The position numbers were made by a program, and so were the translations under genes. The notes under the pieces are model-generated. The model did not search any database and had not been told where the DNA came from. It saw nothing but the letters and a program-made list of their open reading frames with translations. Below are positions 16,030 to 54,347 of a DNA stretch of 64,000 nucleotides, in pieces. Positions within the stretch are counted from its first letter, which is position 1, and each line of letters begins with the position of its first letter. The stretch lies in the NCBI GenBank assembly GCA_045651405.1, contig JAZRSH010000029.1, forward strand, positions 97,960 through 161,959. Direction: 5' to 3'. This DNA is from Christensenellaceae bacterium. GTDB lineage: Bacteria > Bacillota > Clostridia > Christensenellales > Borkfalkiaceae.

Positions 16030-17640
16030 ATGTATCAATATACTCAAGAACAACTTGATTCTATAAAGAAAGTAGAGGCTTCAAGAAAAGAAAGACTTGA
16101 AAACCTTCACCCAAGAATGACTGCTGATGAAAAAACTGCAGTATTACAAGAATTCCACCCAGACTATATCGAAGGTGCATACGAAACTTTAAAAATTGGT
16201 CCTAACAAAGGCGAAAAAGTTCTTCACGAACTCGCTGACCTTTTACAAGGTAAATCAAGGGTTGGTTCTCTTAAATTCGACCTTAAAAAACCTGATTATG
16301 ACGTAGACGTTTTAGTTATCGGTGGCGGTGGCGCAGGTTCTTCTGCAGCGGTTACAGCACACGCTAACGGCGCTAACGTTATGATTGTTACTAAACTTAG
16401 AATTGGTGACGCTAACTCAATGATGGCTGAAGGTGGTATCCAAGCGGCTGATAAGCCTAACGATAGCCCTGCTAGGCACTATCTTGATGCTTTTGGTGGC
16501 GGTCACTTTGCTGCTAAACCTTGCTTACTTGAAAAACTCGTTAAAGAAGCACCTGACGCTATCCGTTGGCTTTCTGACCTTGGCGTTATGTTCGATAAAG
16601 ACGAAAACGGTAACATGGTAACTACACACGGTGGCGGTACTTCAAGAAAGAGAATGCACGCTTGTAAAGACTATTCAGGTGCTGAAATCATGAGAACTCT
16701 TCGTGACGAAGTTATCAATAGGGGTATTCCTGTAATTGACTTTACTTCTGCTGTTGAAATCATTAAAGATGAAAACGGTAAAGCAGCCGGTGCAGTTTTA
16801 GTTAATATGGAAACTAACGAAGTTTTAATTGCTAAAGCAAAAACAGTTATCATCGCAACTGGTGGTGCTGGTAGACTTCACTATCAAGGCTTCCCAACTT
16901 CTAACCACTACGGTGCAACTGCCGACGGTTTAGTTCTTGCTTACCGTGCAGGCGCAAAACTTTTATACGCAGATACTTTACAATATCACCCAACTGGTGC
17001 TGCAGAACCTACACAAATTTACGGTGCGTTAGTTACTGAAAAAGTACGTTCACTTGGCGCACAACTCGTTAACAAAGATGGTAAACCTTTCGTTTACTCA
17101 CTTGAAACACGTGACGTAACTGCATCTACTATCATTAGAGAATGTAAAGGTCGTGGCAACGGTGTTAAAACTACTGACGGCGAAGGCGTATGGCTTGATA
17201 CACCAATGATTGAAATTATCGGTGGCGAAGGCACTATCGAAAAGAGAATCCCTGCAATGATGAGAATGTTCGGTAAATACGGTATCGATATTAGAAAAGA
17301 ACCTATCTTAATTTACCCAACACTTCACTACCAAAACGGTGGTATCGATATCAATGCTGACGGCGAAACTACAAACATAGAAAACCTTTACGTTGCAGGT
17401 GAGGCTGTTGGTGGTATCCACGGTAGAAACCGTCTTATGGGTAACTCACTTTTAGATATTATCGTATTCGGTAGAAATGCTGGTAAATATGCAAGTGAAA
17501 AGGTTAAAGCAGGCGTTAAAGTTGGCAAACTTACTTTAGACCACGTTAAAGCCTTTGAAAAAGAAAGAAAAGAAGCAGGTATTAAATCTGATATTCTTTC
17601 ACCAAAGCTTTTACCTGATTATACTCGCAAAGACCTTTAA
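16030..17640 (+). CDS. frdA: SdhA/FrdA-like flavoprotein (probable soluble fumarate reductase catalytic subunit)
   Basis: VLVIGGGGAGSSAAV FAD fold, LQYHPTG, GEAVGGIHGRNRLMGNSLLDIIVFG. The context of mdh, fumC and an Fe-S partner supports the call. Confidence 0.7.
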   Translation: MYQYTQEQLDSIKKVEASRKERLENLHPRMTADEKTAVLQEFHPDYIEGAYETLKIGPNKGEKVLHELADLLQGKSRVGSLKFDLKKPDYDVDVLVIGGGGAGSSAAVTAHANGANVMIVTKLRIGDANSMMAEGGIQAADKPNDSPARHYLDAFGGGHFAAKPCLLEKLVKEAPDAIRWLSDLGVMFDKDENGNMVTTHGGGTSRKRMHACKDYSGAEIMRTLRDEVINRGIPVIDFTSAVEIIKDENGKAAGAVLVNMETNEVLIAKAKTVIIATGGAGRLHYQGFPTSNHYGATADGLVLAYRAGAKLLYADTLQYHPTGAAEPTQIYGALVTEKVRSLGAQLVNKDGKPFVYSLETRDVTASTIIRECKGRGNGVKTTDGEGVWLDTPMIEIIGGEGTIEKRIPAMMRMFGKYGIDIRKEPILIYPTLHYQNGGIDINADGETTNIENLYVAGEAVGGIHGRNRLMGNSLLDIIVFGRNAGKYASEKVKAGVKVGKLTLDHVKAFEKERKEAGIKSDILSPKLLPDYTRKDL

Positions 17641-17763
17641 AAGTCTATAAGCGTCGCAATACTGCGTTTCTGCAAAGTGGTTTTAGACTTTGATGACCAA
17701 AAAGGTCTATCAAATCCTAAACCATTTGCGAGCCTTGTCTTGCTCGCTTCTATCCTTTTAAAG
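17635..17763 (+). repeat. family-1 long-hairpin intergenic repeat, copy A (overlaps the frdA stop codon)
   Basis: Shares the blocks GCAATACTGCGTTTCTGCAAA, GATGACCAAAA(A)GGTCTATCA and TTGCGAGCCTTGTCTTGCT with 46226-46350. Closing stem CTTTAAAAG / CTTTTAAAG. Confidence 0.85.
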
Positions 17764-17808
17764 TAGCACTTTATTTAAGTGTGGTATAAATTTTATTTAA
17801 AAAATTAT

Positions 17809-17861: not shown

Positions 17862-19259
17862 ATGGAAAAATCTAACAAAAAAAGCCTTAAATGGCTTTGG
17901 ATTACTCTTGCTATACTCGCAGTAGTAGCTCTTGCTGCTTGGTGTGTATATAATGCTTTAGAGGCACATAGTGTTAATAAAGTTTTTAAATTTAGTACAA
18001 CAGCATCATTATTTATTTTAATATTTATAATAACAGCTCTTGGTTACTTACTTGGTTCTATAACTATTAAAGGTGTTAACTTAGGTACTGCAGGCGTGTT
18101 CTTGGTTGCTATCTTATTTGGGTTTATATGCACTCTTAATTTTGGTAATGTTCCAGTTATTGGTTCTTTCCACGTTGAATCAGGCGATACTATTGTAGAA
18201 ACAATGGGTGGCTCTATTCAAAACTTAGGTCTTATTATGTTCGTAGGTTCAGTAGGTCTTATTGCAGGTCCTAACTTCTTTAAAAACCTTAAAAAGAACT
18301 TTAAAACCTATATCGTTTTAGGTGCAATAATTATTATATCATCAACTGCTGTTGCGGTATTATTTACTGCTATAACTGATTATGGCTCAGGTTTTTGGGC
18401 AGGTATTTTATCAGGTGCGTTAACTACTACCCCTGGTTTCTCTGCTGCACAAGAAGCAACTCTTTCAGTTCTTCAATCATTACCTCAATATGCTAATCTT
18501 ACTACTGAGGCTTTAAGACAACTTCCAGAGTACACCATTATTTCAGTAGGTCATGCTATTGCTTATCCTTTCGGTGTTGTAGGCGTAGTATTATTCGTTC
18601 AACTTCTTCCTAAACTTTTAAAAGCTGATATGGTTAAAGAACGTGAACTTTTAAGAATTGGTGGAGATGAGGGTGAAAAATCTTATTCAAATCTTTTCGA
18701 AGTTGAACCTTTTGGTCTTGTTCCCGTTGCTTTAACAGTAGTTTTAGGATTAGTATTAGGCGCTGTTAAAATTCCATTATTTGGTGGTTCTGCATTTAGT
18801 TTAGGAACAACTGGTGGTGTGCTTATTATCGGTTTAGTTTTAGGTCACTTTGGTAAAATTGGCAAAATATCTCTTCAAGTTCCAGCAACTACACTTAAAC
18901 TTTTAAGAGAATTTGGTTTAATGCTTTTCCTTTTAGGTGCAGGTTTTGAAGGTGGTGTAAGTTTAGTTGCATCATTATCAGGCAAAGGTGCTGATATTGT
19001 TATTTTAGGTTTTGTTGGTGGTGCATGTATGACTATTGCTCCAATGATTGTAGGTTTTATTTTAGCAAAACTTGTTATGAAACTTCCACTTTTAAATACT
19101 TTAGGTTCAATTACTGGTGGTATGACTTCTACTCCAGCACTTGGAACGCTTATCAACACTGCTAAAACTGAAGATGTAGCGTCTGCTTACGCATCAACTT
19201 ATCCAATTGCACTTGTGCTTGTAGTACTTGCTTGTCAATTAATGATTGTTTTTATGTAG
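17862..19259 (+). CDS. AAE (aspartate:alanine exchanger / YidE-YbjL) family transporter
   Basis: Two homologous halves with the family motif (GVNLGTAGVFLVAILFG and SLGTTGGVLIIGLVLG). Polytopic. No central TrkA-C domains apparent. Confidence 0.65.
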   Translation: MEKSNKKSLKWLWITLAILAVVALAAWCVYNALEAHSVNKVFKFSTTASLFILIFIITALGYLLGSITIKGVNLGTAGVFLVAILFGFICTLNFGNVPVIGSFHVESGDTIVETMGGSIQNLGLIMFVGSVGLIAGPNFFKNLKKNFKTYIVLGAIIIISSTAVAVLFTAITDYGSGFWAGILSGALTTTPGFSAAQEATLSVLQSLPQYANLTTEALRQLPEYTIISVGHAIAYPFGVVGVVLFVQLLPKLLKADMVKERELLRIGGDEGEKSYSNLFEVEPFGLVPVALTVVLGLVLGAVKIPLFGGSAFSLGTTGGVLIIGLVLGHFGKIGKISLQVPATTLKLLREFGLMLFLLGAGFEGGVSLVASLSGKGADIVILGFVGGACMTIAPMIVGFILAKLVMKLPLLNTLGSITGGMTSTPALGTLINTAKTEDVASAYASTYPIALVLVVLACQLMIVFM

Positions 19260-19418
19260 GGCTCTTCAATATCAACGGTCGATAAATTCCTAATGAAACG
19301 CGTCGTAATAGTGCGTTAAACCCGCTCGAAAATATGTAAACTATTATCTTCGGGGTTTGCCTTCTCTTACTTGCGTTTGATTAGTCCTTTTAAATCAACC
19401 TTATGGTATTTCATCGCC
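19260..19418 (+). repeat. family-2 long-hairpin intergenic repeat, copy A
   Basis: 159 bp starting 1 nt after stop TAG 19257-19259. Aligns end to end with 20806-20964 and 27161-27319. Confidence 0.9.
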
Positions 19419-19420
19419 TT

Positions 19421-19461
19421 GGCTCTTCAATATCAACGGTTGATAAAGACTTAATGAAACA
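19421..19461 (+). repeat. family-2 repeat, 5'-arm-only partial copy
   Basis: GGCTCTTCAATATCAACGGTTGATAAAGACTTAATGAAACA repeats the first ~41 nt of the element, then runs into the terminator. Confidence 0.85.
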
Positions 19462-19463
19462 AT

Positions 19464-19488
19464 AAAACACCCTTTTTAGGGTGTTTTT
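19464..19488 (+). terminator. intrinsic terminator
   Basis: AAAACACCC tttt(t)a GGGTGTTTTT. Confidence 0.8.
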
Positions 19489-19517
19489 ATATAACAAATC
19501 AAAATAAGGATAATAAA

Positions 19518-20804
19518 ATGGTTAACTTAAAAGATTTTATTAAAGGCGATGAAGTTTTACACACCAAAGCCTTTCAACAAGCGGTTGATTATTGTTACAG
19601 TAAAGGTGGCGAACCTTTATTTATTCCTTTTGGAACGTACACGCTTGGCACGGTTATTTTAAAAGCTAACACAACTTTAATATTTGAAGACGGCGCTAAA
19701 ATTTTAGGTTCTAAAAATATTGACGACTTTTTAGCCGATGATATCCCTTTAAACAAATATCAAGATATGTCGCACAGTAGTTATACAAGGTCACTTTTTT
19801 ATGCTAAAAACGCCAAAAACATAACTATTAAGGGTAAAGGTGTTATTGATATGCAATCGGCTTGGGACCACGATAACAAGCGTAATTCTAAGCATCGTGG
19901 GGCAAAGGTAATAGCGTTTGACCACGTTGACGGAGTAGTCATTGAAGATATTAAGTTATTTTATGCTACCGATATCGGCATTTTGCTTGGAAGATGTAAA
20001 AACTGCTTTGTTAAAGGGCTTTATATCGAAACGCATATTGACGGCATTAGTCCCGACGGATGTGAAAACGTTGTTATATCCGATTGTATTTTAAAATGCG
20101 GTGACGACGGCATTGTGTTAAAGTCTTCATACTACGATAACGAGTTAGTTGCTTGCGAAAGAATAACCATAACTAACTGTATTGTAAGTAGTAGATGTTC
20201 GGCTATTAAATTTGGAACGGAGTCTAACGGCGATTTTAGATACGTTACAATATCTAATTGTGTAGTTCACAATACCCGTTGCGCAGGGCTTGCAATAGAA
20301 AGTTGTGATGGCGGTAATATTTACGGTGTTACAATTACAAATATTACAATGCAAAACGTAGGTTGCCCTATATTTATTTTCGGCGGGCTTAGAATGCGCG
20401 GACCTAAAGAATTACAAGCAGGTAGCATTAACGATATAACCATTTCAAATATCTATGCAGACTGTCACGAAAACATTTATAAATCTATAGATTTCTATTA
20501 TGATTTAATTAAAGACGGCATTGATATTTCAAACGTATCCTTCCCAAGCTTAATTATTAATTATACAGAAAACGAAATGAAAAACATTAACTTATCTAAC
20601 GTAACAGTTAAATGTTACGGCGGTAAAAGTGCAAGTGGTGCGGAATTTAAAGATAATCCGCTTGGCTATCCATCGCACGAAATGTTTGGATTCCATCTTC
20701 CTGCATACGGGCTTATCGTTAAAAACTGCAAAGGCTTAAACTTAAATAACGTTAAGTTTGAACTTGTAAATCAAGACGAACGCCCAGAAAGAATAATTGA
20801 ATAA
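19518..20804 (+). CDS. glycoside hydrolase family 28-like (polygalacturonase-type beta-helix) protein
   Basis: N-terminal pectate-lyase-fold region (AFQQAVDYC..GGEPLFIPFGTYTLG). ISPDGCENV and CGDDGIVLKS resemble the GH28 NxDG and GDD motifs. The usual GHG motif is not evident. Confidence 0.6.
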   Translation: MVNLKDFIKGDEVLHTKAFQQAVDYCYSKGGEPLFIPFGTYTLGTVILKANTTLIFEDGAKILGSKNIDDFLADDIPLNKYQDMSHSSYTRSLFYAKNAKNITIKGKGVIDMQSAWDHDNKRNSKHRGAKVIAFDHVDGVVIEDIKLFYATDIGILLGRCKNCFVKGLYIETHIDGISPDGCENVVISDCILKCGDDGIVLKSSYYDNELVACERITITNCIVSSRCSAIKFGTESNGDFRYVTISNCVVHNTRCAGLAIESCDGGNIYGVTITNITMQNVGCPIFIFGGLRMRGPKELQAGSINDITISNIYADCHENIYKSIDFYYDLIKDGIDISNVSFPSLIINYTENEMKNINLSNVTVKCYGGKSASGAEFKDNPLGYPSHEMFGFHLPAYGLIVKNCKGLNLNNVKFELVNQDERPERIIE

Positions 20805-20805
20805 A

Positions 20806-20964
20806 GGCTCTTCAACGTCAACGGTTGATAAAGTCCTAATGAAACGCGGCGTAATAGTGCGTTAAAGCCCTTGAAAAGATGTAAACTCTTATCTTCGGGT
20901 GTTTGCCTTCTATTACTTGTGTTTGATTTGTCCTTTAGTATCAACCTTATGGTTTTTCATCACC
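20806..20964 (+). repeat. family-2 long-hairpin intergenic repeat, copy B
   Basis: Starts 2 nt after stop TAA 20802-20804. Near-identical to copy A over 159 bp. Confidence 0.9.
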
Positions 20965-20971
20965 TAATAAA

Positions 20972-20999
20972 AAAGACTAACGAATTATCGTTAGTCTTT
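20972..20999. terminator. bidirectional terminator (GH28-like / GNAT)
   Basis: AAGACTAACGA atta TCGTTAGTCTT with A-run before and T-run after. Confidence 0.8.
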
Positions 21000-21002
21000 A
21001 TT

Positions 21003-21488
21003 TTATATACTTTTTTGATAAGCAAGTCTTGGGTCACCGTTTGCAAGGTAAATAATACCGCAATACTTAAAGCCGTTTTTAGTTAGTGATTTTTGCATTA
21101 CTAAGTTTTCTTTGCTTGTGTCTATCCGCAAATTATTGCATTTAGAAAGGGCAAAATCATAGCAAATTTTAGCAACGCCTTTGCCGTGAACTACCGTGCC
21201 TATTCTGTGAATAACAACGTACTTTTCATCATTGAGCCAACTTCCTTCATAAATTTTTTCGTAAGTAGGGTCGTTGCCGATAAACATCATAAAAACGGCT
21301 ATAAGTTCACACTCTTCGTAAACGCCGTAAAGCCTATCGTTTTTTATATCTTCAAGTACCAATTCCCTTGAGGGATAACCGTTAGTCCATTGATGCATAT
21401 TACCGTTTTGGCGCATAAAATTACGCGCGTTATCGTAAATTTCCATTATTTTATCAATTTCACTAAGGGTGCAATGTTTTATTACCAT
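21003..21488 (-). CDS. GNAT family N-acetyltransferase
   Basis: 161 aa. HRIGTVVHGKGVAKICYDFAL and MQKSLTKNGFKY are typical GNAT motifs A/B. Confidence 0.75.
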   Translation of the reverse strand: MVIKHCTLSEIDKIMEIYDNARNFMRQNGNMHQWTNGYPSRELVLEDIKNDRLYGVYEECELIAVFMMFIGNDPTYEKIYEGSWLNDEKYVVIHRIGTVVHGKGVAKICYDFALSKCNNLRIDTSKENLVMQKSLTKNGFKYCGIIYLANGDPRLAYQKSI

Positions 21489-21499
21489 AATTTTTTATC

Positions 21500-23089
21500 C
21501 TAAAATTTGCCCGAAAGCAACATGTCTACAAGTTCTTTAATAGATTTACCTTTAATCATTTGTTTAATATCAAGTAATTCTTCTGCTATAATTTCGTCTA
21601 AAACCTTCATGCCTAAAACTTCAACAGGCGCTTTATCGTCCGTTAAAATCAAGTTAGTTTTTTCAACTTCAACAAGGTTGTTTTTTACCGTTGACATTAA
21701 ACTTCGTAATTGATTGTTTTTGATTTTATATATGTTTTTAGTAAGTTCTTCTTGAACGTTTGTATTTTCACTTGCTAAAAGTATTACGTTGCTACTTGCC
21801 ACGCAAGTATATACGCTTGAAAAACAACTTGAAATAGTTCCTTTTAAATAGTCGTTTATATTTTCTTTTTGTGAAGAAGGCATATTTAAGTTAACAACCA
21901 TAACGCCGTTTTCAGTTAAATGATTTTTAACGCTGTTAAAAAACTCTACCGACGACATTTGAAAGGGGATTGTTATATCCCTAAACGCGTCAACCATAAT
22001 TACGTCGTACTTTTTATCGCTTGAATCAATAAAGGCTCTGCCGTCCGCCTCAAAAGTGTTAACTTCTTTAGGTAAATCAAAATAAGTGTGAGCAAGTTCA
22101 ATAATTTTACCGTCAATCTCAACACCGTCAATCTCGCTGATATTAAAATACTTTAAACATTGTTCGCTATACGTACCCGTGCCAAGCCCTAAAATACAAA
22201 CGGAAATATCCTTTTCCGTTCCGCCTGCAATCAAGGGTGCGGAAAGGGCGTAATCGTAATACATACCGGTTAATCCACCGTTTTTCTTTTTGATTGACTG
22301 AACGCCAAACAGTACGTTTGTTGATAAAATTATGCTTGTATCAGTTTCTTCAACCCTCAAATAGTTATAAACGGATTCCCCTTCGTATACGATATTGTTT
22401 TTCCAAAAGGCAACACCGATATTGCTTGATAAAAGCCCAAGTGTAAGGGCGATAATAGTTACGATAGTAGTTTTAACTATATGCTTTTTTCTATATATAA
22501 AATAGATTAAGCAAACTATATAAAGTACGCTTGCAAAAATAACAAAGGTAAGTGCCGTTCCTACCGTTGGTATCGTAACAAAGGTAGGTAAAAATGTGCC
22601 GATAATACTACCAATTGTATTGCACGCCTCAATAATACCAACGGTTTTACCATTTTCGCTAATATCCTTAACTGCAAACTTTACAAGGTGAGGGGTTACC
22701 ATACCTAATACGAGAAGTGGGAAAACGAAAACCAAAAGGCAGGATAGTAACGCCGCCCAAATAAGATAATTTCTTGTAACAAAGGTTGCAAGTGTAATAG
22801 CAACGCCTGAAATTACGAATTTTCCAAACAACGGAATAAGCATAGTAAACGTTGCCGCAATAAAAAGCCAAATAAAAAGCCTTGTAGGGCTTTCGTACTT
22901 ATCCGCCATTTTACCGCCTATAACGTTGCCAAGCGCCATTGCTATCATAATTGTGCCTATGATTATAGTCCAAACTATTTGCGATGACGAGAAGTATGGA
23001 GCAAGTAGCCTTGACGCGCCAAGTTCTATTGCCATAACTGCCGTTCCTGAGAAAAACGCCGTTAAATAATATATCCATTTTTTATTCAT
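21500..23089 (-). CDS. fused membrane (MFS-like) / spermidine synthase-like protein
   Basis: About 220 aa of TM helices, then a SAM-MTase/spermidine-synthase fold (VCILGLGTGTY, DGVEIDGKIIELA, DVIMVDAFRD). Confidence 0.7.
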   Translation of the reverse strand: MNKKWIYYLTAFFSGTAVMAIELGASRLLAPYFSSSQIVWTIIIGTIMIAMALGNVIGGKMADKYESPTRLFIWLFIAATFTMLIPLFGKFVISGVAITLATFVTRNYLIWAALLSCLLVFVFPLLVLGMVTPHLVKFAVKDISENGKTVGIIEACNTIGSIIGTFLPTFVTIPTVGTALTFVIFASVLYIVCLIYFIYRKKHIVKTTIVTIIALTLGLLSSNIGVAFWKNNIVYEGESVYNYLRVEETDTSIILSTNVLFGVQSIKKKNGGLTGMYYDYALSAPLIAGGTEKDISVCILGLGTGTYSEQCLKYFNISEIDGVEIDGKIIELAHTYFDLPKEVNTFEADGRAFIDSSDKKYDVIMVDAFRDITIPFQMSSVEFFNSVKNHLTENGVMVVNLNMPSSQKENINDYLKGTISSCFSSVYTCVASSNVILLASENTNVQEELTKNIYKIKNNQLRSLMSTVKNNLVEVEKTNLILTDDKAPVEVLGMKVLDEIIAEELLDIKQMIKGKSIKELVDMLLSGKF

Positions 23090-23254
23090 TTAGTATTCCA
23101 CCCTAAAAATCCAATTTTTATTATTTTATTACATATAGCAAAGGTTGTCAACACATATTTAAAAAGACAAAATATTTTAATTTACTTATTGATTTTTTTC
23201 TTGCCACTTGATATAATAAAAATAAATAAACTAATTGATTTAAAAGAAGGCAAA

Positions 23255-24544
23255 ATGGCAACTATAAAGGTAAATTTAGATAAAATCATAGGCAAAATTA
23301 AACCTATGCACGGCGTTGGGCAACCGCCACTTGTTGGGCATAGCACCGCTTACTTTAAGTATATGAAAGACGCGGGTATACCATATTCAAGGTTACACGA
23401 CGTAGGCGGACCTTACGGCTGTAATAGATGGGTAGATATCCCTAATATCTTCCGTGATTTCGATGCCGACGAAGAAGACCCAAATTCATACGATTTCGCC
23501 TTTACCGATTTATTAATTAAAGCGCTTATCGATAACGGTGTAGAGCCGTATTACAGGCTTGGCATAACTATAGAAAACGCATCGCACATTAAGGCGTATA
23601 GAACTGCACCGCCAAAGGACTATGAAAAGTGGGCGCGCATTTGCGAGCATATCATTATGCATTACAACGAAGGTTGGGCAAACGGCTACCGTTATAATAT
23701 CAAGTATTGGGAAATTTGGAACGAGCCTGAAAGCGAAGACGAATACGTTGCATCTACTATGATGTGGGACGGCGTTCCTCAGCAGTTTTTTAGATTGTAT
23801 GACGTAGCAAGTAAGCATTTAAAATTCCGTTTTCCTAATATAAAAATAGGCGGATACGGTTCGTGCGGGTTTTATGCACTTCATAGCCCAGGGGCTAAGT
23901 GGCCTGAATTATGGCTTAGTTATTTTGAAAAGTTCTTCAAGTATATAAAGGAACATAATTCGCCAATTGATTTTTTCTCTTGGCACAGTTATTCAAAAAC
24001 GGCAACTAATATAGAATACGTTAAGTATTTAGAGAAAAAACTTATTGAGTTTGGCTATCCCGACTTAGAAACTCACTTAAACGAGTGGCATTGCGTTCGT
24101 GAAGATAGGGGAAATGCCCACCATAGCGCCGAGGCAATGGCTAATATGATAGCAATGCAAAATTCTAAAGTCGTTCAAATTTGTAACGTTTACGATATGA
24201 GAATAACGGGTGCAAGCGGTTATAACGCAATATTTAACCTTAACGATTATAAACCGTTTAAAACTTATTATTCCTTCGTTGCTTTTAATAAGTTATATCA
24301 ACTTAAAAATCAAGTAGAGACCTCGGTCGATAGTGAAAATATGTACGTTTTATGTGCTAAAGACGGGGATAAATCGGCACTTTTAGTAGTAAACTTAACG
24401 GGCGAAACTCAAATGCTTGACTATAGCGGTATAGACTTAACTAACGCTAAATTCCACTTAATAGACGAAGATAGAACCTTTACTTGGGTTAGCGATGCTT
24501 CAAGTATTGAAAACAACGGAGTACTACTTATAACTATAGATTAA
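23255..24544 (+). CDS. clan GH-A glycoside hydrolase (GH39-like)
   Basis: YWEIWNEPES acid/base-type motif in a TIM-barrel-like protein. Start moved to ATG 23255 (RBS AAGAAGG). Confidence 0.55.
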   Translation: MATIKVNLDKIIGKIKPMHGVGQPPLVGHSTAYFKYMKDAGIPYSRLHDVGGPYGCNRWVDIPNIFRDFDADEEDPNSYDFAFTDLLIKALIDNGVEPYYRLGITIENASHIKAYRTAPPKDYEKWARICEHIIMHYNEGWANGYRYNIKYWEIWNEPESEDEYVASTMMWDGVPQQFFRLYDVASKHLKFRFPNIKIGGYGSCGFYALHSPGAKWPELWLSYFEKFFKYIKEHNSPIDFFSWHSYSKTATNIEYVKYLEKKLIEFGYPDLETHLNEWHCVREDRGNAHHSAEAMANMIAMQNSKVVQICNVYDMRITGASGYNAIFNLNDYKPFKTYYSFVAFNKLYQLKNQVETSVDSENMYVLCAKDGDKSALLVVNLTGETQMLDYSGIDLTNAKFHLIDEDRTFTWVSDASSIENNGVLLITID

Positions 24545-24551
24545 TTTTTTT

Positions 24552-24582
24552 AAGGCGCGTAACTAAACGTGCCTTATTTTTT
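24552..24582 (+). terminator. intrinsic terminator
   Basis: AAGGCGCG taactaaa CGTGCCTT (one mismatch) followed by a T-run. Confidence 0.65.
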
Positions 24583-24684
24583 GTATTTAACTTAAAATTT
24601 TGTAAAAATCGTTGAAAATAATCTTTTCAAGATTAAATAAATGTGTTATACTACTATCATAAATATTTTTAAGAGGTTTTAATT

Positions 24685-25266
24685 ATGGCTTATAAAGTTA
24701 TTCCAGTAGTAGTAATTAAAGAATTACAAGATACAATACCTACGTTGCAAGCCCTTTGCGATGGTGACCTTCCCGTTGCTGAAATCACATTCAGAACGGC
24801 TTGTGCTGAAGAAGCAATCAAACTTGGCGTAGAAAAATTCCCTGATATGTATATCGGTGCAGGTACCGTTATCAATAAAGAGCAAGCCGTTAAAGCAATC
24901 AATGCGGGTGCAAAATTCATCGTTTCACCAGGCTTATCTGAAGAAGTTGCCCTTTACTGCAGTGAAAAAGGCGTTACTTACTATCCAGGTTGCGTAACTC
25001 CTACTGAAATTATGAAAGCCATTTCACTTGGCATTGAAGTTGTAAAATTCTTCCCTGCAAACGTATACGGTGGCCTTAAAGCAATCAAGGCTTTAGCAGG
25101 TCCTTTCCCACAAGTTAAATTCTTACCAACTGGCGGTGTAGACCTTTCTAACCTTAAAGAATTTTTAGAATTCGATAAAATCTACGCTATCGGTGGTAGT
25201 TTTATGATGAAAGGCGATATTACCCAAAACTGCAAAGAAATCAATAAAGTATTAGAAACATTATAA
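24685..25266 (+). CDS. eda: 2-dehydro-3-deoxyphosphogluconate (KDPG) aldolase
   Basis: VIPVVVI...LPVAEITFRT...GAGTV...GAKFIVSPG...KFFPA pattern of the Eda/DgoA family. Confidence 0.85.
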   Translation: MAYKVIPVVVIKELQDTIPTLQALCDGDLPVAEITFRTACAEEAIKLGVEKFPDMYIGAGTVINKEQAVKAINAGAKFIVSPGLSEEVALYCSEKGVTYYPGCVTPTEIMKAISLGIEVVKFFPANVYGGLKAIKALAGPFPQVKFLPTGGVDLSNLKEFLEFDKIYAIGGSFMMKGDITQNCKEINKVLETL

Positions 25267-25272
25267 AATATT

Positions 25273-26121
25273 ATGGAAGGAAATTTAAGAACTTTTTTAC
25301 GTTTTCCAAACTTTAAAACTAAAGCGGTAACCCTTAGTTACGACGATGGCGTTAGGCAAGACAAACGCTTAATTTCCATTATGCAAAAATACGGCATAAA
25401 GGGTACGTTTAATATCAATTCGGGTTTATTTTCGCAAGAGTTAAGCACCGAAGAAAAAGGTCGTATGACTAAGGAAGAATGCGTTGAGTTATACACTAAT
25501 TCGGGTATGGAAGTAGCAGTACACGGCTATAGGCATTTATCTCTTGGCGAAGTAGACCCAGCCTTAGCCACCGATGACGTTATAAAGGACAGAAAGGAAC
25601 TTGAAAGTATTTTCGGCGGTATTATTAAAGGTATGGCTTACGCTAACGGTTCGTATAATGATAGCGTTTGCAAGATTTTAGAATGTTGTGGTATTAATTA
25701 TTCCCGCACCACCGTTACTACCGAAAATTTTAGGATTCCTGAAAACTGGCTTAAATGGGATACCACTTGCCACCATAACAACCCTAAACTTATGGAACTT
25801 GCCAAAACCTTCGTTGAAAGAAATTTAGACGGATATTTGTGGCGCAATTACCCCGTACTTTTCTATTTATGGGGGCATAGTTACGAGTTTGATACCAACG
25901 ATAACTGGCAAGTTATTGAAGAATTTTGCAAGTACGTAGGTAACCGTGAAGATATTTGGTACGCAACGAACGGCGAAATTTATTCGTACGTAAAAGCGTA
26001 TGACTCGTTAGAGTTTTCCGCCGACGGAAACACCATATATAACCCAAGCGGACAAACCGTTTATATTTGCTATTTTCATAAAAATATAGCAATACAACCT
26101 AATCAAACAATAAAAATTTAA
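25273..26121 (+). CDS. polysaccharide deacetylase (CE4/NodB-like) family protein
   Basis: TLSYDDG and VHGYRH NodB-type motifs. Confidence 0.7.
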   Translation: MEGNLRTFLRFPNFKTKAVTLSYDDGVRQDKRLISIMQKYGIKGTFNINSGLFSQELSTEEKGRMTKEECVELYTNSGMEVAVHGYRHLSLGEVDPALATDDVIKDRKELESIFGGIIKGMAYANGSYNDSVCKILECCGINYSRTTVTTENFRIPENWLKWDTTCHHNNPKLMELAKTFVERNLDGYLWRNYPVLFYLWGHSYEFDTNDNWQVIEEFCKYVGNREDIWYATNGEIYSYVKAYDSLEFSADGNTIYNPSGQTVYICYFHKNIAIQPNQTIKI

Positions 26122-26140
26122 AATATATAGGAGATAAATT

Positions 26141-27160
26141 ATGAGAGTTATTACTTTCGGTGAATTAATGTTAAGACTTGCACCAGAAAACTATTTAAGA
26201 TTCGTTCAATCTGAAAAGTTTGAGGCTACTTTTGGCGGTGCTGAAGCAAACGTAGCAGTATCGCTTGCAAACTACGGTGTTGACGTATCATTCGTATCAA
26301 AACTTCCTTCGCACGAAATAGGTCAAATGGCAGTTAACAGCTTAAGAAAATTTGGCGTTGACACTTCACTTATCACTCGTGGTGGTGAAAGGGTAGGTAT
26401 TTACTACTGCGAAAAAGGTGCATCACAAAGACCTTCAAAAGTTATTTACGATAGAGCGTACGCTGCTATCGCTATGGCTAAAGCAAGTGACTTTAACTGG
26501 GCAAGAATTTTCAAAGGCGTTGATTGGTTCCACTTCACAGGTATCACACCAGCCCTTTCTGACAGTATGGCAAAAATTTGTTTAACTGCTTGTAAAGAAG
26601 CAAAAAAACGCGGTGTAAAAATCTCTTGCGACCTTAACTTTAGAAAGAAATTATGGTCTAAAGAAAAAGCAGGTCAAGTAATGGGCGAACTTTGTAATTA
26701 CATTGACTACTGTATCGCTAACGAAGAAGACGCTAAAGACGTATTCGGTATCGAAGCAGATAATACTGATATCTACAGCGGTAAACTTGATAGAAACGGC
26801 TACATTTCAGTTGCTCAAAAACTTACTGATAGATTTGGCTTTAAAGGTGTAGCAATCACTTTACGTGAAAGTTTATCTGCAAACGATAACAACTGGTCTG
26901 CAATGCTTTACACAGACGGTACTGCATACTTCTCTAAAAAATACGCAATGCACATCGTTGATAGAGTAGGCGGTGGCGATAGCTTTGGTGCTGGACTTAT
27001 TTATTCACTTCTTAATAATTACGATAGCCAAAGCGCTATTGAATTTGCTGTTGCTGCAAGTTGCTTAAAACACTCTATCGAAGGCGACTATAACATGGTT
27101 TCTGTTGACGAAGTTAAAAAACTTGCCGAAGGCGACGCATCTGGTAGAGTACAAAGATAA
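26141..27160 (+). CDS. kdgK: 2-dehydro-3-deoxygluconokinase (PfkB family)
   Basis: VITFGELMLRL...FGGAEANVAV N-terminus and C-terminal VDRVGGGDSFGAG PfkB motif. Next to eda. Confidence 0.85.
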   Translation: MRVITFGELMLRLAPENYLRFVQSEKFEATFGGAEANVAVSLANYGVDVSFVSKLPSHEIGQMAVNSLRKFGVDTSLITRGGERVGIYYCEKGASQRPSKVIYDRAYAAIAMAKASDFNWARIFKGVDWFHFTGITPALSDSMAKICLTACKEAKKRGVKISCDLNFRKKLWSKEKAGQVMGELCNYIDYCIANEEDAKDVFGIEADNTDIYSGKLDRNGYISVAQKLTDRFGFKGVAITLRESLSANDNNWSAMLYTDGTAYFSKKYAMHIVDRVGGGDSFGAGLIYSLLNNYDSQSAIEFAVAASCLKHSIEGDYNMVSVDEVKKLAEGDASGRVQR

Positions 27161-27319
27161 GGCTTAGTTGCTTGTTCAATTGATAAAGCCCTAATGAAAT
27201 ACTGCGTAATACTTTGTTAAACCCGCTTGGCAATACGGCAAGTATAGCCTTCGGGGTTTGCCTAGTCTTACTTGTATTTGATTAGTCCTTTTGTATCAAT
27301 CTCACTTCGCACCTGCGCC
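27161..27319 (+). repeat. family-2 long-hairpin intergenic repeat, copy C (diverged)
   Basis: Starts immediately after stop TAA 27158-27160. Same 159-bp architecture with many paired substitutions. Confidence 0.85.
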
Positions 27320-27389
27320 TAAAAATAAAATACAAAAAGTATTATAAAAATTTTAAAATCGCACACCCTTGTAGTAAGGGGTGTGCGAT

Positions 27390-27530
27390 ATGTATAATAA
27401 TGATAATAATGATGATTTTTCTTTCTTGGCGTGGCAACTTTTTGTAAGAACGGGTGCGGTTAATTATTATATTCTGCACAAAAAAACTAAAAGTGAAAAG
27501 AAAGAAGAAATAGAAAAACAAAAGCGTTAG
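27390..27530 (+). CDS. YqzL-like small protein (46 aa, below the ORF-track cutoff)
   Basis: Reads MYNNDNNDDFSFLAWQLFVRTGAVNYYILHKKTKSEKKEEIEKQKR. RBS AAGGGG 8 nt upstream. Stop TAG lies 1 nt before the recO ATG. yqzL precedes recO in Bacillus. Confidence 0.6.
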   Translation: MYNNDNNDDFSFLAWQLFVRTGAVNYYILHKKTKSEKKEEIEKQKR

Positions 27531-43262: not shown

Positions 43263-46079
43263 ATGCAAGGAAACAAAACTAAGACAATGCTTGTTAAAAT
43301 TTTAAGCATCATTTGTTCTTTCTGCTGTTGTTTCGCACTTTGCTTCGGCTTAATCGGCTGTGGTGAAGAAGATCCTGTTGTTGTTTCAATTATCGTTGAA
43401 AATGATATTCTTAAAGTTACATATTCAAACGGTGACGTTAAGACTATCGGTTCTGTAAAAGGCGATAAAGGTGACAAAGGTGAAGACGGCGCTCAAGGCG
43501 AAAAAGGTGACAAAGGCGACAAAGGCGATAAAGGCGAACAAGGCGAACAAGGTATTCAAGGTGAAACTGGTGCTACTGGTGCTACTGGTGCTGCTGGTGA
43601 AGACGGTGAAGATTACAACTCTTTCGCTAAAGACTGCGTACACAACCGTGTTGAATACGTATTAGCTTACCCTACATGTTCAACTGAAGGTATCATGATT
43701 AGTGCATGTATCGAATGTAACGGTATGGAAACTATCGTTCTTGAAAAAGAAGAAGATTTACACGGTCAAATCGTAACATCTTACATTCTTGGTCCTGAAG
43801 ATGCACTCGTTCCTGCTTTAACATTTGAAGCATACGCAACTGAAAAAGGCGCTAACTACGTTGCACCTACTTGTACATCAAAAGGTAAAAACGATGAAAT
43901 TTGTGCTGAATGTAAAGCAGTATTAAATACTGATGAAATCGACATTCTTGATCACAAGAACGAAGACGGTACTTCTGCTCGTATCCACTTCAGAGGTCCT
44001 AGAGAAAATGGTAACATCTGTATGGATGGTATCTACGAAGGCGATTTATGCTTACTTTGTGGCGATGTAAACAACACAGCTTATACTCCAGCTGCTGGTC
44101 ACCACACTGCTGATGATACTTGGACTTACGTTGATGGCGTTAAACCTGCTATTGGTGCTGGCGCTCAAGCAACTGGTACATGTACTGAATGTAAAGAAAC
44201 TATCGTTATCGATCTCCCTGCTTTAGACGCTAAAGTTAACGGTGAATTCGTTTACGATATTGACGTAACTGTTCCTGCATCTTGTTTTGCTGCTGGTAAC
44301 ACTAACTACACTTATGAAGATATCACTGGTTTCGTAGCTGACGTTGACGTTGCTACAAGCACAGCTCACAAATTTGCTGGTCAAGATATCGATTTAGGTT
44401 ATGTATTTACAGAAGCTGAAGTTACTGCATTAGGATTTGATATTATTTCTAACGTTCCATCTTCTTGCTTAGAAAAAGGTGAAGCAGTATTTGAATGTAC
44501 AGTTTGTGCAAAAACTAATAAAGTATTCTTCATTGGTAACCACAAAGCTGTTGAAGGTAAAGACGTTGTTACTGCTCCTACATGTCTTGCTAAAGGTTAC
44601 ACAACTCACACATGTTCTGTTTGTGCCGTTGAATACAAAGACACTTATGTTGACAAACTTCCACACAGCTTCGTTGTAGAAAGTGAAAAAGTTAACGAAG
44701 AAGACGATACTAAACTTGACGTTGTATTTGCTTGTACAACTCCAGGTTGCACAGAAAAACTTTCTATTACTGGTACAGTTAACACTGCTGAAAGCTATGC
44801 TGCTGACTGTGGTAAAGATGGTAAAGTTGTTTACGACTACATTGACCTCGAAGGCGCACCTCAAAAATTCGTTGTAGTTCTTCCTAAACTTACTGACCAC
44901 ACAATCGTAGCTGGTACAACTCTTAAAGACTTCAATGCTAAACCAGAAGGTTACACTTACAGTGCTATTAAAGCATTTGAAACAGCTGGTACTCTTAGAT
45001 TCATTGATAACGTTCCTACAGCATGTAACGTTAAAGGTGAAGCAGTATTCGAATGTATTGACTGTCATAAGACAATTAAGATTAACGTTTACGCTGACCA
45101 CGACTTCGGTACTAACGAAGAAGTTTACCACAAACATACTCAAACTGCAGTTGGTTACACTACTAAATTATGTAACTCTTGTGGTGAAGATATTGTTATC
45201 GCAAAAGACCCTGCTATCGTTCACACTTGGAAATTCCTTTCTAAAGTTAAAAACGAAAACGAAGATACTTACACTGTAGCATTCGAATGTACTGTTTGTG
45301 GCAAACAAGAATCTGACGTTATCGCTACATTAACAAATACTGTTCCTGCAACTTGCGAAGGTCCTGGTAAATACGTTTACAGCTACACAGATAAAGACGG
45401 TAACCCTCAATCATTTGATATTGAAATCCCAGCTCTTACAGACCATACAATCGTAACTGATGTAACTCTTAAAGATTTCAATGCTAATCCAGAAGGTTAT
45501 ACTTACAGCGCAATCGAAGCTTACGTAACAGCTGGTGTTCTTAGATTCATTGATAACGTTCCTACAGCATGTAACGTAAAAGGTGAAGCAGTATTTGAAT
45601 GCTTATCTTGCACTAAGACTATTAAGATTAACGTTTATGCTGACCACGATTATGAACTTCAACCAGTTGTAGAACCTACTCACGCAACTATCGGTGAAAA
45701 ATTCGAAATCTGTAAAGATTGTGGTGACAAACACGTTATCGAAACTTATGACGTAGTTCCTCACGTTTACGGTGATCCAGTTCTCAATGCAGACGGTAAA
45801 TTCGAATTTACATGTGCTTGCGGTCACGTTGAAGTAGTTAACGCTGTTAAAGTTGTAGTTACTGCTCCTACTTGTACAGCTGGTGGTTACACTGATTACT
45901 ACTTAGATGCAACTAACTTCGTTCGTGCTAACTACACAGATGCTCTTGGTCACGACTATGAAGAAGACGTTATCGTTAACTTCGAAGTTGAAATCAACGG
46001 TATCATGCGTAAATGTAAAGCAATCTTATGTAAAGTTTGCGGCGAAGCATTAATCATTGAAGTTGAACCAGAACTTTAA
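43263..46079 (+). CDS. large secreted lipoprotein with collagen-like triple-helix repeat and multiple Cys-rich modules
   Basis: Lipobox LIGCGEE, 17 G-X-Y triplets, recurrent (A/V)P(T/S)C..KG....C..C modules. RBS AAGGAGAA upstream. Confidence 0.85.
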   Translation: MQGNKTKTMLVKILSIICSFCCCFALCFGLIGCGEEDPVVVSIIVENDILKVTYSNGDVKTIGSVKGDKGDKGEDGAQGEKGDKGDKGDKGEQGEQGIQGETGATGATGAAGEDGEDYNSFAKDCVHNRVEYVLAYPTCSTEGIMISACIECNGMETIVLEKEEDLHGQIVTSYILGPEDALVPALTFEAYATEKGANYVAPTCTSKGKNDEICAECKAVLNTDEIDILDHKNEDGTSARIHFRGPRENGNICMDGIYEGDLCLLCGDVNNTAYTPAAGHHTADDTWTYVDGVKPAIGAGAQATGTCTECKETIVIDLPALDAKVNGEFVYDIDVTVPASCFAAGNTNYTYEDITGFVADVDVATSTAHKFAGQDIDLGYVFTEAEVTALGFDIISNVPSSCLEKGEAVFECTVCAKTNKVFFIGNHKAVEGKDVVTAPTCLAKGYTTHTCSVCAVEYKDTYVDKLPHSFVVESEKVNEEDDTKLDVVFACTTPGCTEKLSITGTVNTAESYAADCGKDGKVVYDYIDLEGAPQKFVVVLPKLTDHTIVAGTTLKDFNAKPEGYTYSAIKAFETAGTLRFIDNVPTACNVKGEAVFECIDCHKTIKINVYADHDFGTNEEVYHKHTQTAVGYTTKLCNSCGEDIVIAKDPAIVHTWKFLSKVKNENEDTYTVAFECTVCGKQESDVIATLTNTVPATCEGPGKYVYSYTDKDGNPQSFDIEIPALTDHTIVTDVTLKDFNANPEGYTYSAIEAYVTAGVLRFIDNVPTACNVKGEAVFECLSCTKTIKINVYADHDYELQPVVEPTHATIGEKFEICKDCGDKHVIETYDVVPHVYGDPVLNADGKFEFTCACGHVEVVNAVKVVVTAPTCTAGGYTDYYLDATNFVRANYTDALGHDYEEDVIVNFEVEINGIMRKCKAILCKVCGEALIIEVEPEL
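43461..43613 (+). repeat. collagen-like (G-X-Y)17 coding repeat
   Basis: GDKGDKGEDGAQGEKGDKGDKGDKGEQGEQGIQGETGATGATGAAGEDGED. Confidence 0.95.
44721..45830 (+). repeat. intragenic tandem duplication (two ~180-aa modules)
   Basis: LTDHTIVAGTTLKDFNAKPEGYTYSAIKAFETAGTLRFIDNVPTACNVKGEAVFECIDCHKTIKINVYADHD aligns with LTDHTIVTDVTLKDFNANPEGYTYSAIEAYVTAGVLRFIDNVPTACNVKGEAVFECLSCTKTIKINVYADHD. Boundaries are approximate. Confidence 0.85.
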
Positions 46080-46194: not shown

Positions 46195-46228
46195 GAACGC
46201 TCGACATTAAGTCGGGCGTTCTCTTTTT
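46195..46228 (+). terminator. intrinsic terminator
   Basis: GAACGCTCGAC attaa GTCGGGCGTTC followed by TCTTTTT. Confidence 0.7.
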
Positions 46229-46350
46229 AAAGGCGTATAACCTTTGCAATACTGCGTTTCTGCAAAAAAAGTTTGACTATGATGACCAAAAGGTCTATCA
46301 TATCCACACTTTTTTGCGAGCCTTGTCTTGCTTGGTTCTACGCCTTTAAA
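46226..46350 (+). repeat. family-1 long-hairpin intergenic repeat, copy B
   Basis: Closing stem TTTAAAGGCGTA / TACGCCTTTAAA. Same conserved blocks as 17635-17763. Confidence 0.85.
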
Positions 46351-46362
46351 TAATGTTTTACT

Positions 46363-46487
46363 ATACTTTGTAAGTCTTGTCTAACTTGCTTCTGCACTCT
46401 TAAAATGCCGCTATATTAAGCAAAGGTCTACCAGTCAACTAAACTTTACGAGCCTATCCCAACTTGCTTTTACGCCTTTAAAATATT
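46363..46487 (+). repeat. degenerate partial family-1 units (3'-arm-like, two copies)
   Basis: CTTTGTAAGTCTTGTCTAACTTGCTTCTGCACTCTTAAAA and AAAGGTCTACCAGTCAACTAAACTTTACGAGCCTATCCCAACTTGCTTTTACGCCTTTAAAA parallel the right half of copy B. Confidence 0.6.
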
Positions 46488-46503
46488 ACTTTACTAAACT
46501 TAA

Positions 46504-50888: not shown

Positions 50889-51063
50889 AAGTTTTGATTT
50901 TTCACCTTGTTGGTTTTTAATGGCAAAACACGATAAAATCCTTTGCGTTTTTTTCAGTTTCGTACCATACAGGTACGCGCCTTCAAAATAACGCGTGGCT
51001 TTTCCCGCGTTTTATCCCTTAAAACGTGACAAGTCACTAATCAACAATTTTCAAACTCAAAAC
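50889..51063 (+). other. ~175-nt highly structured 3' region of pck (single copy in this window)
   Basis: Outer stem AAGTTTTGA (50889-50897) / TCAAAACTT (51055-51063). Inner pairs TTGTTG/CAACAA, GATAAAA/TTTTATC, CGTACC/GGTACG. Lies between the stop and the terminator. Confidence 0.5.
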
Positions 51064-51087
51064 TTAAGAGTTGAAAAACTAAAACAC

Positions 51088-51127
51088 AAAAGCGATTTCG
51101 TTACTGAAATCGCTTTTAGTTTTTTTA
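51088..51127 (+). terminator. pck intrinsic terminator
   Basis: AAAAGCGATTTC gttact GAAATCGCTTTT followed by AGTTTTTTT. Confidence 0.85.
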
Positions 51128-51180
51128 TAAATAAAAAATTTGTGAAAGGTATTGAATTTTTAATAAAATAATGTTAATAT

Positions 51181-51327
51181 AAACTATATGAAGTTAAATA
51201 TTTTGCTAACCGCAAAATCTTTGCAAAACTAACGTTTTGCCGTAAAAACTATCATTTTTACACTTCAAGTTTGAAATACTACGAAGTTTCAAACCCTTGC
51301 AAGCAAGTTTTCAACTTTTTACATATT
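51181..51327 (+). repeat. family-3 multi-hairpin repeat, copy A
   Basis: Aligns with 54203-54347. About ten substitutions in ~125 nt by hand alignment. Confidence 0.9.
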
Positions 51328-52385: not shown

Positions 52386-52576
52386 TATATTCTCCTTTAT
52401 TAATTAACCTATTAAAAAAACAAAAAACTCGTAAAATATCGTTAAATGAAAATGTTTTTTTGCTTTAAAATTATTGATTATTAGTTAAAATTAGTGTATA
52501 ATATATGCGTGTATACGTTATTTATAACTATGCGTTAAATTTAAATTATATTCCAATACAAAAAGGGAGTTTTTTA

Positions 52577-54172: not shown

Positions 54173-54202
54173 AATACATTTCCACCGAATTTCAAGTAGT
54201 GT

Positions 54203-54347
54203 AAACTATAAGAAGTTAAAGATTTTGCGAAACGCAAAATCTTTGCAAAACTTCCGTTTTGCTGTAAAAACTAAAGTTTTTACACTTCAAGTTTGAAATA
54301 CCACGAAGTTTCAAACCCTTGCAAGCAAGTTTTCATCTTCTTATATT
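54203..54347 (+). repeat. family-3 multi-hairpin repeat, copy B (outer stem extends to ~54181-54375)
   Basis: Closing helix TATAAGAAG / CTTCTTATA. An additional flanking inverted repeat TCCACCGAA (54181-54189) / TTCGGTGGA (54367-54375). Confidence 0.9.

Follow-up and report, generated by a model that had tools for sequence, protein, structure and literature searches.

A family of whole-length hairpin elements lying at stop codons in uncultured Christensenellaceae

Family-2 copies in the window and in related genomes

The stretch of DNA analysed here (the window) comprises 64,000 nucleotides (nt) of contig JAZRSH010000029.1 of a Christensenellaceae bacterium (positions 97,960 to 161,959), and has a G+C content of 36%. 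Its subject is a repeat, called Family 2, of which three copies (A, B and C) lie at the stop codons of a gene for an Asp-Al_Ex permease (open reading frame (ORF) 17862-19259), a GH28 gene (ORF 19518-20804) and a PfkB/kdgK gene (ORF 26141-27160); a second repeat, Family 1, is described further below. When the window is searched by nhmmer with a profile made from the three copies, matches are found at 19256-19422, 20803-20969 and 27157-27324, together with a fragment at 19421-19460, all on the + strand, and there are no others. These are the same places at which an earlier interpretation of the letters alone (the sequence-only reading) had put three copies of 159 bp and a 5'-arm fragment. Its statement that each copy starts 0-2 nt after a stop codon agrees with the measured stop-to-element distances of 0, 1 and 0 nt for A, B and C. 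The features at these sites are the following.

19260..19418, + strand: Family-2 copy A, a long imperfect hairpin, abutting the TAG stop codon (19257-19259) of the Asp-Al_Ex permease gene
19421..19461, + strand: a partial second 5' arm directly 3' of copy A (nhmmer match 19421-19460)
19464..19487, no strand assigned: a terminator-like hairpin after copy A, already present in the empty allele
20806..20964, + strand: Family-2 copy B, starting 1 nt past the TAA stop codon (20802-20804) of the GH28 gene
20972..20999, no strand assigned: a terminator-like, bidirectional hairpin separating copy B from the convergent gene 21003-21488
27161..27319, + strand: Family-2 copy C, directly past the TAA stop codon (27158-27160) of kdgK
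27358..27389, + strand: a conserved hairpin without a T-run, just before a small ORF (27390-27530) and recO

A separate hairpin or terminator had been proposed downstream of each copy. This holds: the hairpins downstream of A and B are terminator-like, and behind copy C there is a conserved hairpin that has no T-run and that is also found in genomes without copy C. When measured against the empty allele, the insert at site A covers 19259-19461 in full, and the comparison of alleles shows that element A was inserted between the permease stop codon and the pre-existing terminator-like hairpin at 19464-19487. Trailing 5'-arm pieces like that of copy A also lie behind copies at four related loci (L006, L002, L007 and L001; loci of relatives are numbered in this way throughout). 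The Family-2 elements are 159-165 nt long and A+T-rich and have no T-run; stop codons close all three reading frames within about 60 nt, and a search for a promoter or terminator within the element finds none. A census of hairpins behind all 53 genes of the window reveals nothing beyond the known families.

Relatives were gathered by pattern scans and as contigs with homologs of GH28, kdgK and the permease, and were confirmed by nhmmer. A 3'-arm pattern finds 10 loci in the genome collection, all in metagenome-assembled genomes (MAGs) named "Christensenellaceae bacterium" (JAZLAE01 and JAZURK01), and an independent 5'-half pattern finds 6 loci in one metagenome assembly. With nhmmer, 17 full copies at 17 independent sites are obtained (E-values of 1e-31 to 1e-56), plus remnants. 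Family 2 is thereby seen in at least four genomes or assemblies, comprising only "Christensenellaceae bacterium" MAGs and the one metagenome, with copy numbers of about 5-10 per genome as judged by pattern (about 4-6 pattern hits per genome in the scan). In viral contigs there are five pattern matches, all by chance, and no element is detected by nhmmer; blastn of the plasmid collection gives a single chance match of 23 nt. The Rfam scan suggested in the sequence-only reading assigns no family to the element: at the gathering threshold the whole window yields a T-box alone, a scan of 19200-21050 at E <= 10 yields terminator-driven noise only, and scans of seven other loci yield tRNAs and AdoCbl riboswitches only. 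No report of repeats in Christensenellaceae was found in the literature searched.

It is extremely improbable that these copies reflect chance likeness, an assembly artefact or ordinary terminators that look alike. Only the AT-rich context would favour this, whereas copies from independent assemblies match with nhmmer E-values of 1e-41 to 1e-56, separate terminators are present behind A and B, and the hairpin extends over about 160 nt without a T-run.

Hairpin structure and covariation

Each window copy folds as one long imperfect hairpin, as stated in the sequence-only reading, with z-scores of the RNA minimum free energy of -3.45 (A), -2.42 (B) and -4.73 (C). Copy C also folds under DNA parameters, on both strands. 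Covariation is assessed from an alignment of the 17 copies, which come from at least four genomes, with the structure calculated by RNAalifold. The consensus is a single hairpin of 47 pairs, in which 95.0% of the cells are paired; sliding the 3' partners by 1-3 columns lowers this share to 38-49%, and 731 of the 799 cells are Watson-Crick pairs. Compensatory changes, in which both sides have changed and pairing is kept, occur in 22 of the 47 pairs, as compared with 4-6 for the slid alignments and 10.8 +/- 1.8 for the shuffled ones, and none of 500 shuffles reaches 22. The four examples of covariation that the sequence-only reading had listed for A, B and C are all present in this alignment, and the trend extends to all 17 copies. 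Clearly, pairing is kept where sequence is not, as that reading had held, and selection or a correcting process therefore acts on a hairpin. Two mismatches (T57 x C115 and G43 x G128) and a pyrimidine-rich internal loop are invariant among the 17 copies, which implies that the two arms are kept deliberately unequal.

The G opposite T in copy B had been taken as a sign of pairing in the plus-strand RNA, but the larger alignment has no strand-specific trend: when one invariant U64-G108 pair is left out, there are 12 G-U cells and 17 A-C cells, and the minus-strand RNA is predicted to be the more stable one in 13 of the 17 copies. Because compensation goes from one Watson-Crick pair to another, G-U cells do not exceed A-C cells and both strands fold, a preference for plus-strand RNA is not supported. 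The covariation pattern fits a palindrome at the DNA level at least as well as one in RNA.

This pattern is of importance for the possibility that the element moves as single-stranded DNA, with the hairpin being the substrate of an HUH/Y1 transposase (as in REPIN/RAYT and IS200/IS605) or of a tyrosine recombinase (as for attC sites), and being inserted next to a short motif without target duplication. We consider such mobility unlikely, even though the restriction of compensation to Watson-Crick pairs, the missing G-U excess and the folding of both DNA strands would agree with it. The invariant T57 x C115 mismatch (also seen in Family 1), the G43 x G128 mismatch and the U64-G108 pair resemble the asymmetric marks that such enzymes read, the filled and empty alleles of site A align perfectly with no duplication beyond 1 nt, and insertion is orientation-specific. 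However, the arms have no REP-like sub-palindromes, no GTAG/CGTC tag and no separate subterminal hairpins; attC core sites are absent, the TCAAC/GTTGA motifs being in the wrong orientation; and the host genes belong to the core, dnaK-dnaJ being an example, and are no cassettes. A search for RAYT or IS200/IS605-type transposases, as proposed in the sequence-only reading, finds no Y1, RAYT or IntI gene in any locus examined. Orientation, moreover, follows the abutting gene even against its neighbours and the local skew (see below), where a lagging-strand rule predicts otherwise.

Placement, junctions and mobility

At all 17 independent sites the element is in sense orientation to the adjacent gene, so that its orientation relative to transcription is indeed not random, as anticipated from the three window copies. 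At 14 of these sites the distances between the stop codon and the GGC core of the element are 0, 1, 0, 4, 7, 5, 6, -14, -23, -1, 0, 3, -8 and 0 nt, and three of the 17 upstream ORFs extend by a few codons into the element. The exceptions to stop adjacency are L013 and L014, both located behind a terminator, and L015, found upstream of a pyrH-like gene in a divergent spacer. In three convergent spacers the element abuts the co-oriented gene, and at L001 and L005 this co-oriented gene opposes its neighbours and the local GC skew. These two sites imply that orientation follows the gene rather than replication, skew and gene strand being confounded, and a replication-strand rule is correspondingly weakened. 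The orientation is also not set by an A- or T-tract, as copies that follow T-runs (L013, L014 and the Family-1 copy at 46226) and copies that precede A-runs are oriented alike with respect to the gene.

The host genes are functionally unrelated and include dnaK before dnaJ, a dGTPase gene before dnaG, and genes for an AraC regulator, a HAD hydrolase and a peptidase. A regulon or a riboswitch-like role was rejected, given these unrelated host genes and the convergent gene that copy B faces.

Two other species retain copy C at this position, and the orthologous copies of the three species are 92.5-95.0% identical. When compared with the third codon positions of kdgK (75-83% identical) and the spacer that follows (78-82%), copy C is the more conserved, which indicates that purifying selection, or else homogenisation, acts on the resident copy.

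The placement and the conservation of copy C also bear on the idea that the element is, in the first place, a host cis-acting RNA: a hairpin of the 3' untranslated region (UTR) at the stop codon, with a base that is opened by terminating ribosomes, which would control mRNA decay, processing or downstream translation, its spread being secondary. This idea, which we hold to be improbable, accounts for the strict sense orientation, for the location inside transcription units (before terminators or between operon genes, as in dnaK-dnaJ and dGTPase-dnaG), for the purifying selection on orthologous copy C, for the conserved internal loops and for one or more invariant U-G wobbles that occupy the same place in both families. 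It is not in agreement with the variable pairs, which are not enriched in G-U, or with the predicted higher stability of the minus strand; the host genes have no common function, close relatives lack the element at the same genes, three copies are outside 3' UTRs (L013 and L014 past a terminator, L015 in a divergent spacer), and no Rfam family is matched.

At the junctions, TA precedes the 5' end in most Family-2 copies and is present at both ends at eight independent sites. In Family 1 it is found at both ends of all copies but the divergent one of L004, in the form T-TA-AAGGC...GCCTT-TA-A. Once the element and one TA are cut out, A, B and C each have a TAA stop codon again. The terminal inverted repeats are perfect over AAGGC...GCCTT only (4-5 bp), and imperfect matches reach further, with 9-12 of 14-15 bases matching at, for example, L001, L012 and L014. 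An 8-bp target duplication is excluded when the copy junctions and the empty sites are compared. The junctions fit a TA-duplicating insertion into the TA of a stop codon, and the empty sites are compatible with a TA duplication and also with none. Termini with 5'-TA-3' and long stem-loops are common properties of bacterial MITEs, transposable elements of the miniature inverted-repeat type (PMC2229807).

Empty sites are found among the relatives. Site A is empty in L017 and L035: the terminator directly follows the stop codon, with the C-terminus of the protein and the position of the stop unchanged from the filled allele. Nine contigs of relatives (L025-L033, KdgK 87-97% identical) lack the element at site C and have CAAAGATAA, followed directly by the spacer and the hairpin. 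L018 lacks the element at site B, and in L017, the GH28 protein of which is 85% identical, there are 296 nt (1397-1692) between the GH28 stop codon and the terminator instead of copy B. This L017 segment (1397-1692) encodes a 77-residue ORF that has the appearance of an XRE-type helix-turn-helix protein.

Sites have also been occupied in different ways. A single AAE-permease stop codon has three occupants: a Family-2 copy in the window, a Family-1 copy in L036 and, in L034, a hairpin that is Family-2-like but divergent; as different family members are present at one permease stop codon, this site has been hit more than once. The copies of L013 and L015 are identical over 101 nt at unrelated loci; they are the youngest copies and the result of recent copying. 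Precise presence and absence, the reused site and the identical copies at different loci together characterise the element as mobile. As seen at orthologous sites A and C, the boundaries between presence and absence are precise.

Truncated and rearranged remnants exist among the relatives. One of them, from Family 2, lies at L004 6689-6741, about 130 nt downstream of a Family-1 copy; it is rearranged, a 3'-arm segment being joined directly to a 5'-arm segment. The copy of L006 (JAZLAE010000029.1, 1-200) adjoins the B-site terminator and carries the trailing fragment of copy A. It is 94.6% identical to A and 86.0% to B, and an assignment as the ortholog of copy B was dropped for this reason. 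The arrangement in JAZLAE suggests either gene conversion among the copies or, between two direct copies, a gain or loss of GH28. The repeats flank a variable gene, GH28, and may contribute to differences in gene content between species; they also break assemblies, several contigs ending inside copies.

Family 1, known repeat families and the nature of the element

Family 1 is represented in the window by the following features.

17637..17765, + strand: Family-1 copy overlapping the TAA stop codon (17638-17640) of a FAD_binding_2 gene
46226..46353, + strand: Family-1 copy directly behind the T-run of an intrinsic terminator
46362..46490, + strand: a tandem pair of Family-1 3'-arm copies, both partial (about 46362-46407 and 46422-46490)

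Family 1 also forms one long hairpin (z from -5.8 to -9.8), with compensatory changes in 28 of 44 pairs across ten copies, and has the termini TTTAAAGGC...GCCTTTAAA. It sits at the FAD_binding_2 stop codon in at least six related genomes, with varying tandem partial copies, and its sites have a variable number of partial 3' arms. The two families have in common the 5' motif CGCAATACTGCGTT, the 3' motif GCCTTGTCTTGCT, a closing AAAG/CTTT helix and a core helix, GYAATAC/GTCTTRC, including its T x C mismatch, and the Family-2 profile weakly matches one Family-1 copy (E = 0.007). Modules reassort among copies, namely outer arms (three types) and apical stems (two types). Family 1 is a shorter relative, the two families forming one superfamily in an uncultured Christensenellaceae clade, and Family 2 looks like a Family-1-type core to which an outer arm has been added.

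Among known systems, bcr1 of the Bacillus cereus group (about 155 bp) is likewise a mobile element of the same size from Firmicutes. Its sites vary from strain to strain, it is transcribed, and its folded structure is maintained through compensatory base changes (PMC3184786, a review). Family 2 differs in that one hairpin runs from end to end, with a TA or TAA repeat at most, and the sequences are not similar; no report was found for bcr1 of a strict sense orientation at stop codons such as that of Family 2.

The enterobacterial ERIC/IRU, YPAL/RU-2 and RU-3 elements are whole-length imperfect palindromes of 100-170 bp in transcribed intergenic regions, with contiguous terminal inverted repeats of 4-7 bp and TA termini; they are co-transcribed with upstream genes, and effects on mRNA stability have been proposed (PMC2229807). 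They resemble Family 2 in size, in the whole-length palindrome, in the short terminal repeats and in the TA. However, these elements belong to another phylum, have no sequence in common with Family 2 and contain ORFs that become fused to genes. For ERIC, both orientations occur.

The Correia/NEMIS elements of Neisseria and the RUP elements of S. pneumoniae are MITEs with TA targets or termini and long-hairpin transcripts, and RNase III cleaves the NEMIS hairpins, which modulate neighbouring mRNAs (PMC2229807). In these elements the terminal inverted repeats (24 and 9 bp) and the TA duplication are clear, and for RUP there is a candidate parent insertion sequence (IS), whereas the terminal repeats of Family 2 are minimal and no parent is known.

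The REPIN/REP-RAYT system has, like Family 2, a hairpin of two inverted arms that co-evolve, at gene 3' ends. REPs are G+C-rich, GTAG/CGTC-tagged, high-copy sequences of 20-40 bp (PMC3733652, PMC2817692). Membership was rejected for the element, which is A+T-rich, 160 nt long, untagged and low-copy. An IS200/IS605-derived palindrome-associated transposable element (PATE) would need separate subterminal hairpins, and was rejected because the ends of the element pair together in one whole-length hairpin.

With integron attC sites, Family 2 has in common an imperfect palindrome that starts at the stop codon of a co-oriented gene and a structure more conserved than the sequence. An attC assignment was nevertheless rejected: inspection of the alignment shows no RYYYAAC ... 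GTTRRRY core sites, there is no integrase, and the neighbours are core chromosomal genes and not cassette arrays.

The 5' end of the element, GGCTCTTCAAC, resembles the ISL3 inverted repeats (ISL3-like start GGCTCTTC), which begin GGCTCTTCG (PMC11448079). ISL3, however, makes 8-bp duplications, and the 3' end of the element (reverse complement GGCGATG...) matches poorly. A MITE mobilised by ISL3, with GGCTCTT... at both ends and an 8-bp duplication, was therefore rejected, as only the 5' end is alike and there is no such duplication.

Families 1 and 2 together make up a new superfamily of MITE-like whole-length hairpin repeats, in which Family 2 is itself a new family; in kind they go with bcr1, ERIC/YPAL, Correia and RUP. 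Less usual in Family 2 are the strict sense orientation, the systematic abutment of stop codons with the stop preserved, a recurrently used stop codon and the strong conservation of at least one copy across species. We give an even chance to the interpretation that Family 2 is a low-copy, non-autonomous, TA-targeting, MITE-like hairpin element of about 160 bp that is carried in 3' UTRs. The size of 159-165 nt (MITEs have about 100-400 bp), the dispersal over 17 independent sites and the lack of coding capacity are those of a MITE. The sequence-only reading had asked whether the copies belong to a known MITE, and this proves to be so in part: precise presence and absence, the AAGGC...GCCTT ends and the TA junctions are MITE-like, but no known family is matched and a target duplication is unproven.

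According to the MITE-like interpretation, an enzyme encoded elsewhere would insert the element at a TA dinucleotide in AT-rich DNA. In the surviving copies this TA would usually come from a TAA or TAG stop codon, or lie a few nt past it, upstream of the terminator of the gene. The first base of the element is a purine (A/G-GGC), so that TA followed by this purine would rebuild the stop codon as TAA or TAG and leave the protein unchanged. Transcription would then make the element the beginning of the 3' UTR, where a hairpin of about 47 bp would form. Only sense copies inside transcription units would persist, and purifying selection would hold old copies. This suggests that the hairpin has come to benefit the mRNA, perhaps by protecting its 3' end or as a processing site, or that at least its orientation matters to the mRNA. 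What the data demonstrate is the repeat family, its covarying hairpin, exact gain and loss, the repeated occupation of a single stop codon, sense orientation, closeness to stop codons and the conserved state of copy C; the TA duplication, a transposase acting in trans, transcription of the element and any effect on the mRNA are what we infer here.

Several points weigh against the MITE-like interpretation. The perfect terminal inverted repeats are just 4-5 bp. The ends are ragged, with 0-2 A before GGC and 0-2 T after GCC, TA is common in AT-rich DNA, and the filled and empty alleles of site A also align without any duplication; for these reasons the TA duplication is unproven. Copy numbers look low. 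No transposase, integrase or reverse transcriptase domain is found among the scanned ORFs of the window or the called genes of the related loci, and, with no transposase in the window or in about 400 kb of related loci, no parent element is known. A DDE transposase needs no whole-length complementarity, and the hairpin itself is thus unexplained by a MITE model. Finally, L013 and L015 as well as L014 are not adjacent to stop codons, so that "stop-codon targeting" is no strict rule. The position of L013 and L015 away from stop codons hints that selection, rather than targeting, may be responsible for much of the stop-adjacent pattern.

It is quite unlikely that the insertion machinery itself (an enzyme recognising translation stops or gene 3' ends), rather than selection, sets the sense placement at gene ends, with the stop codon being rebuilt, or that, in a related version, the element is a translation-sensing 3'-UTR device opened by the ribosome. 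If this were true, the three family members at one stop codon in different species would represent real targeting. If the sense-only, stop-abutting placement reflects targeting, it would be a new rule of insertion-site choice; if it reflects selection, the copies are ready natural 3'-UTR hairpin insertions for studies of mRNA ends in Clostridia. Together the two families constitute an undescribed repeat superfamily in Christensenellaceae, a health-associated and poorly studied gut lineage, and, with nested families, empty and filled alleles and one stop codon with three members, they provide an unusually clean natural data set on why whole-length hairpins persist.

Some other features of the window and of the related loci were noticed. 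A third repeat family is present at 51175-51324 and 54197-54346, its two copies being 89% identical over 150 nt. Its fold consists of four to five short hairpins in a row and not of one long hairpin; one copy is upstream of a patatin-like gene and the other starts 25 nt past the stop codon of ORF 52505-54172. Just past the PEPCK stop codon, the conserved intergenic stretch at 50902-51091 is 77% identical to L004 2606-2793 (a JAZLAE contig). The T-box leader at 290-487 (102 bits, above the Rfam gathering score) is upstream of a hexapeptide-transferase gene (listed ORF 427-1170), the true start of which is probably downstream of the leader, and of a cysteinyl-tRNA synthetase gene (1172-2557). 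A 938-residue protein encoded at 43263-46079 has a collagen-like triplet repeat (43459-43575) and internal repeats of 546-558 nt with Cys-rich motifs. Past the permease gene the gene content differs by species, being GH28, DUF4430 genes or nothing, and AdoCbl-II riboswitches, at L034 4159-4239 and L036 9577-9657, precede DUF4430 genes right behind the permease site. The small conserved ORF 27390-27530 (about 46 residues) is located between kdgK and recO, directly behind the conserved hairpin, and is also seen in relatives without copy C, where it is called as a gene of 35-41 residues.

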